NCBI GenBank assembly: GCA_015709575.1
Contig: CP054190.1
Coordinates: forward strand, 1,732,616-1,796,615
From: Planctomycetia bacterium
Lineage (GTDB): Bacteria > Planctomycetota > Phycisphaerae > UBA1845 > Fen-1342
Length of the DNA: 64,000 nucleotides
Reading direction: 5' to 3'
A program made the position numbers and the translations under genes. This document shows, in pieces, positions 10,039 through 11,587 of the stretch. Each line of letters begins with the position of its first letter. Positions within the stretch are counted from its first letter, which is position 1. Below the pieces are notes generated by a model, which had not been told where the DNA came from, searched no databases, and saw nothing but the letters and a program-made list of their open reading frames with translations.

Positions 10039-10992
10039 ATGAAGAGCAACTTGTGGATGTGGCTGGCGGTCGGCGCGTTTGGCGCGGCTGTGCTGGCCGG
10101 CTGCGTCAGCGAGACGAGCGAGTCTCTGCTGGACGCAGTAGGAGACAAGTCCGGCAGTGCGCGCCCCTTGCAGTTGACGCCCGGCAGCGGCGACCTGGTG
10201 GCATCGGCCCCCTCGGCGGAACCCACCGAGGACACGCTGGTGCGCGGCGGGACACCCGCGCCGACGCGCCCGCTGTCGAGCGTACGTGGCGTTGGTTCAC
10301 TGAATGTGAACAGCAACGGGAACACGAACTCGAACTCCAACAGCAACACGAACACGAACACGAACACGAACACGAACACGAACACGAACAGTAACACGAA
10401 CTCGAACACGAACGGCAACGCCAACGGCAACACGAACGCCAACTCGAACACGAACGGCAACGCCAACAGCAACACGAACGCCAACTCAAATACGAACGAC
10501 AACGGCAACGCCAACACCAACGGCAATGCGAACTCGAACACGAACGGCAATGACAACGGCTCGCTTTGCCCGGATGGCAGCCTGCGCGTCCGCGCGGACA
10601 TCGTCGGCGGCAGCTCGGTCGTCGGTGAGGTCGAGTATCGCGAGCTGCCCGGCGGATGCTTCCGATTCCGGGTCGATGTCGATTGCTGTCTGGTGCGTGG
10701 GTCGCATGCGGTCGCCGTCAACGGCCTGGTCGTGGGCATGATCTCGATCGACTCGCGCGGTCGGGGTCGGCTGGAGTTCGATACCAGCGATGGCAGCTTC
10801 CCGGCCGGATTCCCGCTGATTGTCGTCGGCGACGTGGTGTCGGTCGGACCGGCCTCCGGGACGTTCCTGCTGGATTGCAGCTCGACTCCGGATGTATGCA
10901 ACGGCAACACCAACGGCAATGCCAATACCAACACGAACGGCAACGCCAACGACAACGGAAACACCAACTCCAACGGCAATGTGAACGGCTGA
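10039..10992 (+). CDS. Lipoprotein with a long strictly alternating Asn-x repeat, a small Cys-containing beta-rich domain and a second Asn-x tail
   Basis: ATG 10039 follows GGAG at 8 nt. The signal plus lipobox reads MKSNLWMWLAVGAFGAAVLAGC. There are 43 consecutive N-x dipeptides by my codon count (about 10306..10563), with x = T/S/G/A/D/V. A globular segment follows (LRVRADIVGG...GRGRLEFDTSDGSFPAGFPLIVVGD), then the tail NGNTNGNANTNTNGNANDNGNTNSNGNVNG. The track ORF 9727 start is an over-extension. Confidence 0.8.
   Translation: MKSNLWMWLAVGAFGAAVLAGCVSETSESLLDAVGDKSGSARPLQLTPGSGDLVASAPSAEPTEDTLVRGGTPAPTRPLSSVRGVGSLNVNSNGNTNSNSNSNTNTNTNTNTNTNTNSNTNSNTNGNANGNTNANSNTNGNANSNTNANSNTNDNGNANTNGNANSNTNGNDNGSLCPDGSLRVRADIVGGSSVVGEVEYRELPGGCFRFRVDVDCCLVRGSHAVAVNGLVVGMISIDSRGRGRLEFDTSDGSFPAGFPLIVVGDVVSVGPASGTFLLDCSSTPDVCNGNTNGNANTNTNGNANDNGNTNSNGNVNG
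10345..10386 (+). repeat. Perfect in-frame hexanucleotide microsatellite (AACACG)x7 encoding (Asn-Thr)7
   Basis: Read directly from the sequence: seven uninterrupted AACACG units by my count. They are embedded in a longer imperfect AAC-NNN array. Confidence 0.9.
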
Positions 10993-11155
10993 CGGAGCGT
11001 GAGGCGTGCGGCGGCCCCCGCGGCCGAGCGCCCCGTTTGTTGCAACCCGGGCGGCCCGGTCTCGTGTTCGAGCCGGGCCGCCGGGTCAGCCTGAGGGAAT
11101 GACAACAGGGCACGAGTGTCGTGTCTTGCAGATTTGTGAATGGCGAACAGGAGCC

Positions 11156-11587
11156 ATGCGGATGCGAACGGGAAATGGAAAGTGGCTGATGATCAGTGCG
11201 GCGTTCCTGGGTGCGCTGGCGGGATGTGTCAGCGATGCCGCGGATTCCCTGCTGAACGCAGTCACGGATGCGGTTCGCTCGGTCGGCGGCGCCAGCGTCA
11301 ACGGGAATACGAACGGCGGTGGCACTGCTAACTCAAACGCCAATTCGTCCGGATCAGGAAACCAGAACGGCAACACAAACGCGTCCAACTCGAACTCCGG
11401 TTCCGGCGGCTCGTCGAACGGCAATTCAAACAGCGCCGGCCCAACGAACGGGAACTCCAACTCCAGCGGGAACGGCAACTCGAACGCGGCTGGCAACACG
11501 AATGGCAACACCAGCGGCGGCACGAACAGCAACACCAGCAGCGGCGGGAACGGCAACGCCAATTCCGGCGGCGGCGACGACGACTAA
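11156..11587 (+). CDS. Paralogous Asn/Ser/Gly-rich lipoprotein
   Basis: MRMRTGNGKWLMISAAFLGALAGCVSDAADSLLNAVTD shares the lipobox and the CVS-x3-SLL-x-AV-x-D start with the preceding gene. The remainder is an N/S/G/T low-complexity region ending GGGDDD. AGGAG lies upstream. The start is ATG 11156 or 11162. Confidence 0.75.
   Translation: MRMRTGNGKWLMISAAFLGALAGCVSDAADSLLNAVTDAVRSVGGASVNGNTNGGGTANSNANSSGSGNQNGNTNASNSNSGSGGSSNGNSNSAGPTNGNSNSSGNGNSNAAGNTNGNTSGGTNSNTSSGGNGNANSGGGDDD

Follow-up and report, generated by a model that had tools for sequence, protein, structure and literature searches.

A Predicted Lipoprotein with Long Asn-x Repeats and a Superoxide Dismutase-Like Barrel in a Wastewater Planctomycete

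Results

A Tandem Pair of Asparagine-Rich Lipoprotein Genes

Within a 64,000-nucleotide stretch (the window) of a planctomycete genome available as a single contig of 3.89 Mb (CP054190.1), two tandem genes on the forward strand encode predicted lipoproteins rich in asparagine. Gene 1 (10039..10992), the main subject here, encodes, by open reading frame (ORF) and translation, a protein of 317 amino acids made up of a signal peptide, a tether, 43 Asn-x dipeptides, a superoxide dismutase (SOD)-like barrel, and a further 15 Asn-x dipeptides. Its N-terminus reads MKSNLWMWLAVGAFGAAVLAG-C; the signal peptide (10039..10104), identified by reading the sequence, ends in ...AAVLAGC and contains the lipobox L-A-G-C (Cys22). 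The mature protein starts C-V-S-E-T-S-E-S-L-L-D-A-V, the beginning of a non-repeat tether (residues 22–88, 10102..10302) that was modeled by AlphaFold2 (AF2) with a predicted local distance difference test score (pLDDT) below 50.

Counted by regular expression, the long array comprises 43 uninterrupted Asn-x dipeptides (residues 89–174, 10303..10560). The initial annotation of this DNA, made from the letters alone, had the number right and the position one codon off, at 10306..10563. The x residues are Thr (16), Ser (10), Gly (8), Ala (6), Asp (2), and Val (1). Tandem Repeats Finder detects periods of 6, 18, 24, and 42 nt in the array, and a perfect (AACACG)×7 core (10345..10386) is a likely site of in-frame slippage. 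The second, C-terminal run that had been described is a tail of 15 dipeptides by the same kind of count (residues 288–317, 10900..10989; pLDDT 40–42), which has a counterpart in many homologues, not in all; it ends in ...NGNVNG, with neither an LPXTG motif nor a hydrophobic tail. Between the two arrays lies the central domain of 114 amino acids (residues 175–288, 10561..10902), which contains six Cys residues. Asn makes up 19% of gene 1 compared to ∼2.2% in long ORFs of the genome, and the repeat has a GC content of 54% against 67% across the window and the genome, bearing out the remark that its composition runs against genomic bias. A six-frame scan found no second locus in the genome with at least 12 AAY-NNN units in a row.

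Gene 2 (11156..11587, + strand) encodes a lipoprotein paralogue of 143 amino acids without the barrel. Its ATG lies at 11156, not at 11157 as first given, while the end at 11587 and the description as low-complexity sequence stand: the protein is dominated by N, G, S, and T (Asn 31, Gly 31, Ser 26), has Asn-x runs of merely 3–4 dipeptides, and closes with an acidic DDD tail. Its lipobox (...LGALAGC, Cys24) is followed by a mature start of C-V-S-D-A-A-D-S-L-L-N-A-V. The lipobox and mature N-terminus that the two proteins had been said to share are indeed common to both: the motif C-V-S-[ED]-x2-[ED]-S-L-L-[DN]-A-V is found in genes 1 and 2 only within the 3.89-Mb genome, and the two genes can be aligned as DNA over the signal-peptide end and this motif, as expected of paralogues, although the BLASTP match between the proteins is weak (E = 0.1 after composition correction). 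The motif also occurs in the family members P0010, P0017, P0022, and P0038. The same genome encodes Lgt (PF01790, E = 9e-32) and LspA (PF01252, E = 2e-27), so that by sequence both proteins qualify as lipoproteins, their lipidation itself being predicted. Searches of Pfam and NCBIfam returned only noise for both proteins (E up to 10), in agreement with the view that the architecture belongs to no described family. A promoter and terminator scan of 9600–11750 gave nothing above the shuffled expectation and no sigma-70-like promoter.

The nearest public locus (L002) lies on a 4.24-Mb contig of a metagenome-assembled genome of the same genus, Phycisphaerales bacterium Kalu_18-Q3-R12-55_MAXAC.193. 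It has the gene order of the window, namely a family 2 glycosyltransferase (GT2), gene 1, gene 2, and a membrane protein with an NPCBM domain, and its barrel is 87% identical to that of gene 1; among the related loci it alone has a gene 2 orthologue. The locus is carried by metagenomic sequencing runs from wastewater, activated sludge, and bioreactors.

Asn Codons Are Retained as the Repeat Changes Length

Comparison of gene 1 with its L002 orthologue supports selection on the repeat, as had been argued from composition. Among the aligned Asn codons of the repeat, 41 are identical, 17 are changed synonymously, and none non-synonymously, a ratio that partly reflects the ambiguous alignment of repeats, which puts Asn on Asn. 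The corresponding counts are 31, 10, and 17 for the x codons and 56, 42, and 15 for the folded domain. Since a single-base change in AAC is silent only about one time in five, the probability of at least 16 changes with none non-synonymous is ∼1e-11. Evidence that is free of alignment comes from the unbroken alternation itself, which extends over 43 dipeptides in gene 1 and 58 in L002 with mixed AAC and AAT codons (39 AAC and 4 AAT in gene 1, 38 AAC and 20 AAT in L002). With many silent changes and no Asn lost, the arrays are therefore likely to be old. Selection also appears to act on the x positions, which are confined to small residues: the two orthologues together have 140 of them, occupied by Thr (53), Gly (35), Ser (22), Ala (17), Asp (9), Val (3), and Ile (1). 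Lys, Arg, Pro, Met, and aromatic residues are absent from these positions, even though they are one step away from ACG. Taken at the sequence level, these data support the maintenance by selection of both Asn and small x.

Length, by comparison, is free to change: species differ in it by whole dipeptides, and so do samples. The uninterrupted runs of 43 and 58 dipeptides and the C-terminal runs (15 in gene 1, 16+8 in L002) leave the orthologues 25 dipeptides apart, and 50 gap columns of their alignment fall within the repeats and 2 elsewhere. In a contig from a different study (run X2), position 10380 is followed directly by 10441, so that 60 nt, or 10 dipeptides, are missing in frame. Short-read contigs break at the hexanucleotide core, with records ending or beginning at 10345–10381.

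These length changes, together with the perfect core and the Tandem Repeats Finder periods of 6–42 nt, are also what one would expect if the array were neutral filler, that is, a microsatellite that expanded in a tolerant linker, its period-2 Asn being the footprint of AAC-NNN units; hexanucleotide microsatellites are, moreover, common across the phylum. Such an origin without selection is nevertheless highly unlikely in our judgment. It would have to accommodate the 17 synonymous and 0 non-synonymous Asn changes, x positions that are never Lys, Arg, Pro, or Met, and a composition that opposes the 67% GC bias, as well as the recurrence of N-rich flanks, built from unrelated repeat units, in 31 of 56 single-domain homologues of the barrel.

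The Central Domain Is an SOD-Like Barrel without Metal Ligands

The small, Cys-containing, beta-rich domain that had been proposed between the two runs was modeled confidently as an all-beta structure. From an alignment of 70 sequences, AF2 predicted eight strands for the central 114 amino acids with a pLDDT of 94.5 and a predicted template modeling score of 0.87. All top 50 Foldseek matches in the PDB are Cu,Zn-SODs (E = 2e-4, template modeling scores 0.6–0.7), the best being the monomeric SOD1 core from which loops IV and VII have been deleted (PDB codes 4bd4 and 4bcz; score of 0.65–0.7 for 4bd4). Prediction and structure search thus agree on the eight-stranded Greek-key barrel of Cu,Zn-SOD. 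At the sequence level, a profile search of the PDB matched SOD1 sequences weakly (E = 0.13–0.9), and the barrel has no match to Pfam Sod_Cu (E up to 10).

The conserved His and Asp metal ligands of Cu,Zn-SOD were not found in the family: His does not exceed 20% in any column of the 70-sequence alignment, whose near-invariant residues are G59, G67, G69, P81, P85, and G90. The domain therefore matches a well-known family, which would have counted against the initial interpretation, at the level of fold only, and in the absence of the metal ligands this match brings no established function with it. We propose that the barrel has a binding or structural role and no enzymatic one. The window also contains an Fe/Mn superoxide dismutase gene (4727–5593, − strand), whose product has an N-terminal extension of ∼87 amino acids (the Pfam match begins at residue 88). 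It lies 5 kb from the barrel gene, and this closeness to an SOD-like barrel is probably coincidental.

Four of the six Cys residues covary perfectly. In the close subfamily, 30 sequences have all four, 6 have only C3 and C106 of the domain, and 6 have none. This pattern implies two disulfides, which we assign to C177–C280 and C207–C287, and an oxidising, extracytoplasmic location. The other two residues, the vicinal Cys216–Cys217 (10684–10689), occur only in gene 1 and L002, other members having GF, DF, or GL at this place, and could form a vicinal disulfide or a genus-specific thiol site.

The barrel belongs to a large family. An exhaustive phmmer search of 1.84 billion representatives found 347 proteins at E≤1e-3, 107 of them at E≤1e-10, and when eight distant members were compared with Pfam, the barrel remained unclassified and only co-occurring domains were matched (dockerin, beta-helix, RTX). 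Domain copies were counted in 152 analysed hits. A single copy is present in 56, and it is among these that the 31 proteins with N-rich flanks are found; the other 96 have 2–5 copies in tandem, with intervening linkers rich in D/E, S, or G, and only 2 of these 96 are N-rich. Tandem-barrel planctomycete proteins (P0008, P0009, P0036, P0123, and ∼90 other distant hits) carry dockerin-like, RTX, or beta-helix modules, an arrangement that looks like an extracellular beads-on-a-string architecture.

Members of the N-rich subfamily share one plan, consisting of a lipobox, an N-rich repeat, the barrel, and an N-rich tail. Their repeat units differ (GNTNDNGA, NGNANGG, NVNGDNG, NGNDNGVP), and some members (P0021, P0062, P0049) have 35–48 unbroken Asn-x dipeptides. 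As judged from these sequences, what is conserved is Asn richness together with local N-x-N-x-N words; an overall period of 2 does not extend to the whole family, many members having units of 7 or 8 residues.

The Repeats Are Predicted to Be Disordered and Resemble Linkers Elsewhere in the Lineage

In the AF2 model of full-length gene 1, the signal peptide, the tether, both Asn-x runs, and the tail have pLDDT values of 36–49 and no secondary structure, with the Asn-x repeats themselves at 36–42. The initial annotation had suggested that perfect period-2 spacing would place all Asn side chains on one face of an extended strand, so that the repeats could form an Asn ladder or polar zipper as a surface fibre. 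With the small residues on the opposite face, as in a polar silk, such strands would assemble, inside one molecule or across several, into a fibre, a sheet, or an amyloid-like surface layer. N-rich sequences are prone to form amyloid, and small residues alternate in the same manner in (Gly-Ala)n silk; the perfect period across 43 and 58 dipeptides and an Asn conservation stricter than that of folded-domain residues would both suit such a structure. The prediction, however, contains no strands, which runs counter to a ladder formed within the molecule. Many family members interrupt the period every 7–8 residues by GG or GAG, x includes Gly (8/43) and Asp (2/43), both of which disfavor regular sheets, and, as described below, the same type of sequence serves as a short linker beside anchors and between unrelated domains. 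We regard an Asn ladder as still less probable than neutral filler.

Another possibility, raised at the outset for minerals and ice, is a binding face, in which arrays of Asn carbonyls (and of Asp after deamidation) would bind Ca2+ or the surface of a crystal. The N-x-N-x-N-G words recall the opening half of calcium loops of the DxDxDG type, N-D-N-G is abundant in homologues, and gene 1 contains 15 deamidation-prone N-G pairs. The repeat is nevertheless almost without acidic residues (2 Asp in 86), and no regular fold is predicted for it. The habitat of activated sludge and bioreactors gives little reason to expect ice binding, and no mineralisation genes were seen among the neighborhood genes. 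The ion-, mineral-, or ice-binding role as a whole is hardly credible to us, and its ice- and mineral-binding forms were rejected, as no feature supports them.

A flexible spacer is easier to reconcile with the distribution of such sequences in the genome. A six-frame scan identified N-rich segments in 11 ORFs, including genes 1 and 2. In the other nine, which look like genes for secreted proteins, these segments lie mostly right after a lipobox-type Cys (e.g., GGCPQNNNGNSNGNGNANGNSNS...) or right before a C-terminal anchor composed of a hydrophobic helix and a basic tail. Positions beside anchors and between domains are those expected of a spacer. Runs of at least seven AAY-NNN units occur at ∼8 loci in this genome and at several in a genome of the same genus, some of them orthologous. 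Beyond the genus, they were seen in 5 of the 14 further genera sampled within the family and in 3 of the 10 further families within the order, with almost no matches in reversed-pattern controls. At phylum scale, the DNA pattern (AAYNNN)×11+AAY matches 27 of 401 genomes, a poor measure of Asn-x, as many matches are plain hexanucleotide microsatellites, their frames are unknown, and the controls fire too. Of the 23 other same-class genomes sampled at that scale, not one has a run of at least 12 AAY-NNN units. From these sequence patterns we propose that N-rich linkers in secreted and anchored proteins are a habit, patchily distributed, of this bacterial order. A literature search returned nothing on asparagine-rich linkers in Planctomycetes.

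Two observations from outside the window touch on this habit. A genome from another family of the order (G419) has Asn-x runs at 10 or more loci, where the codons are richer in AT and x takes a broader range of residues (Q, L, E, D); the habit may therefore reach its peak outside the family to which the window belongs. Three large secreted proteins of the source genome (C1:2066287–2067768, 3187282–3190278, and 3324184–3325542) end in an N-rich linker, then a patch rich in Cys and Gly, and finally a single hydrophobic helix with a basic tail, for example ...CGPGAATMMPLTILSLAALKLGRRRNRS. These C-termini look like sorting or anchoring signals of the PEP-CTERM/exosortase style.

Conserved Neighbors and a Possible Modification System

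Glycosyltransferase genes had been reported on both sides of the lipoprotein genes. Upstream this is correct: the divergent gene at 8837..9607 (− strand) encodes a GT2 (PF00535, E = 1e-29) that is, by size and domain, of the polyprenol-phosphate-sugar synthase type. The downstream gene (11599..14061, + strand) encodes instead a polytopic membrane protein of 820 amino acids with a C-terminal NPCBM/NEW2 domain (PF08305, E = 7e-36, residues 670–803 only), for which no glycosyltransferase match was obtained. The start codon of this gene is uncertain (11599, 11641, or 11734).

Synteny was counted over four related loci with enough flanking sequence. A homologue of the membrane protein, in most cases carrying the NPCBM domain, directly follows the lipoprotein gene in all four (L002, L003, L004, and L005, 76–38% identity), and a divergent upstream GT2 holds the same relative position in two (L002, 90% identical; L005, 57%). 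This conserved pairing suggests a functional partnership, and the gene 1 protein is probably a partner of the polytopic membrane/NPCBM protein.

The membrane protein itself represents a sizable family, with at least 192 matches at E≤1e-3 among 8000 candidates scored, all named hypothetical or NPCBM-containing. Relatives P0155–P0274 are specific to Phycisphaerae and occur with or without the C-terminal NPCBM domain, and the invariant motifs are GNDSxYH, SHHYGFH, KARRFIEYWP, DDWDxFP, and GLDPKFT. The membrane part (residues 47–667) has no Pfam family (E up to 1), no sequence relative was found in the PDB even with a 21-sequence profile, and an hhalign comparison with the window's PMT_2 protein gave a probability of 0.6%. 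Two of its motifs (D-x-x-Y-H-x-R and the WWDYG-like DDWDTF) gave a GT-C-like lead that Pfam, the PDB profile, and hhalign did not confirm; all three being negative, we do not claim the protein as a GT-C enzyme or an oligosaccharyltransferase. A second paralogue of this protein is present in each of the two genomes looked at, and in the window's genome the paralogue (2783976–2786489) has no N-rich lipoprotein neighbor.

These neighbors bear on the remaining role first suggested for the repeat, that of a glycan carrier, here extended to other modifications. The Asn-x and N-rich segments would then be acceptors, the GT2 would make a polyprenol-phosphate sugar, the membrane/NPCBM protein would be the transferase, and a mucin-like brush would result, all of which is compatible with a stalk. 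Besides the order of lipoprotein and membrane protein in 4/4 loci, at identities as low as 38–47%, and the divergent GT2 in 2/4, this idea gains from the Ser or Thr at 26 of the 43 x positions in gene 1, from the invariant acidic and aromatic motifs of the membrane protein (GNDSxYH, DDWDxFP) with its carbohydrate-binding NPCBM domain, and from the precedent of the Ser-Asp (SD) repeat stalks, which are glycosylated by dedicated glycosyltransferases (PMC9881980). It loses ground on the acceptor itself. The repeats of several close homologues have no Ser or Thr at all (P0022, (NGNANGG)n; P0049, (NGNVNGNANGNM)n; P0035, (NGNDNGVP)n), and O-glycosylation is therefore not the conserved reason for the repeat. 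Nor does the array offer N-glycosylation sequons, as strict alternation places Asn at +2 and so precludes N-x-S/T; a single sequon (N173-G-S) is present among the 60 Asn of gene 1, and gene 2 has five. The membrane protein, as noted, has no glycosyltransferase match in Pfam, PDB profile, or hhalign searches, and its paralogue elsewhere in the genome lacks such a neighbor. We regard a carrier role as tentative and on balance unlikely.

Transcription of Gene 1

Four metatranscriptomes from one bioreactor study were mapped on 8700–12300 at ≥97% identity. Contigs cover gene 1 at 10035–10310, 10504–10973, and 10956–11145, and otherwise lie only on ybaB; the GT2, gene 2, and the membrane gene have no transcript contig in the four metatranscriptomes. 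The first of these positions, 10035, is the start of one contig (X25) and lies 4 nt upstream of the gene 1 ATG; a single contig end, it could hint, weakly, at a very short leader.

Discussion

Our preferred reading, to which we assign a probability of roughly 0.55, is that gene 1 of this Phycisphaerales bacterium specifies a lipid-anchored protein of the envelope in which a metal-free SOD-like head is carried on a flexible, uncharged Asn-x stalk. Signal peptidase II would cleave the precursor, and the acylated Cys22 would fix the protein in a membrane. An unstructured tether of 152 residues would come next, its final 86 residues alternating Asn-x (x = T, S, G, A, D, V), and such a chain, being uncharged, very hydrophilic, and non-compacting, would act as a flexible stalk that extends the head away from its anchor. 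The head would be a small beta barrel with two disulfides and the Cu,Zn-SOD core fold devoid of its metal site, followed by the shorter Asn-x tail. In-frame slippage of hexanucleotide AAC-NNN units would build and resize the stalk, and selection would afterwards preserve Asn at every second residue together with small x. The divergent GT2 may modify the gene 1 protein or the same target as the membrane protein. The anatomy, the conservation of and selection on Asn, the length variation, the fold of the head and its lack of metal ligands, the synteny, and the transcription come directly from the data; disorder, stalk function, disulfides, and the partnership with the neighboring genes are inferred. 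Of the four roles first put forward (an Asn ladder, a mineral- or ice-binding face, a hydrated spacer, and a glycan carrier), the hydrated spacer fits best, given repeats with no predicted structure and similar segments beside anchors in the same genome. The initial interpretation as a whole is partly supported, and the comparison of repeat lengths that it called for has yielded both the 43 versus 58 dipeptides between species and the in-frame variant between samples.

Several points weigh against this reading. Low pLDDT is no proof of disorder, and AF2 is blind to intermolecular assemblies; the ambiguity of repeat alignment noted above reduces the force of the 17:0 ratio. Expression of gene 1 is known at the transcript level only, from contigs that are shallow (2–5×) and to which DNA carry-over may have contributed. 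Distant members of the barrel family have D/E-, S-, or G-rich linkers instead. Above all, Asn is kept more strictly than a generic spacer requires. Other linkers tolerate many compositions, and this strictness toward one residue is therefore not accounted for by a generic spacer, which is why we keep a modification of the repeat under consideration.

In its most far-reaching form, modification would make the alternating Asn chain the dedicated substrate of a new periplasmic system composed of the GT2 and the membrane/NPCBM protein. We consider this distinctly unlikely. If it were true, the selection on Asn and the Ser/Thr-free repeats would point to a sequon-independent modification of the Asn side chain, and the protein would represent an undescribed kind of bacterial surface glycoprotein brush. 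A variant would be programmed deamidation of Asn-Gly, converting a neutral stalk to an acidic one. In flexible peptides no sequence deamidates faster than Asn-Gly, and with 15 N-G pairs the gene 1 stalk would slowly acidify in a slow-growing organism.

A lipid-anchored head on an Asn-x stalk has partial counterparts in known systems. The barrel shares its eight-stranded Greek-key topology with Cu,Zn-SOD, and YojM of B. subtilis is an SOD-like lipoprotein that lacks the copper ligands, an anchored state predicted here as well; the gene 1 barrel differs from Cu,Zn-SOD in having neither metal ligands nor electrostatic and zinc loops, and in its two family-specific putative disulfides. About half of the outer-membrane lipoproteins of E. 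coli have disordered N-terminal linkers (El Rayes et al., bioRxiv 10.1101/2021.01.05.425367), which, like the tether of gene 1, stand right after the lipidated Cys and before the folded domain. Those linkers are tens of residues long and mixed in composition, in contrast to a 152-residue tether that contains an 86-residue dipeptide array with apparently selected Asn.

The closest likeness is to the staphylococcal SD stalks of Sdr and Clf proteins, which are disordered, highly extended, and glycosylated by dedicated enzymes (PMC9881980). In both cases, long alternating dipeptides of variable length, encoded by short in-frame DNA units, are placed between an anchor and functional domains. The SD stalk, however, is a strong polyanion, whereas the Asn-x stalk is essentially uncharged; SD proteins are held by a C-terminal LPXTG sortase anchor and the gene 1 protein, as predicted, by an N-terminal lipid; and the two come from different phyla and envelope types with no sequence relationship, any modification of the Asn-x repeat being hypothetical. 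Gene 1 is thus an analogue of the SD-repeat proteins, not a member of their group. The Asn-rich regions of Plasmodium falciparum, which are repeat-expansion insertions of debated function (PMC3749963), are mostly homopolymeric and follow an AT-rich bias, unlike the strictly alternating repeat described here, which opposes a 67% GC bias. The planctomycete segments differ further in being limited to exported proteins and in the apparent purifying selection on Asn.

Where surface proteins have low-complexity stalks or tethers, these are usually regarded as interchangeable filler. The Asn-x repeat would be a clean natural case of the opposite, in which selection favors, against GC bias, a single kind of residue along a disordered linker whose length is free to vary, and Asn-x linkers of this type, uncharged, hydrophilic, and exposed to proteases, could find use as designed spacers. 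The analysis also defines a widespread and previously unclassified planctomycete domain, a metal-free SOD-like barrel represented by 347 clusters, and a conserved three-gene module that includes a large, unannotated family of membrane proteins. Both belong to a wastewater lineage that is abundant yet uncultured and of whose envelope biology very little is known.

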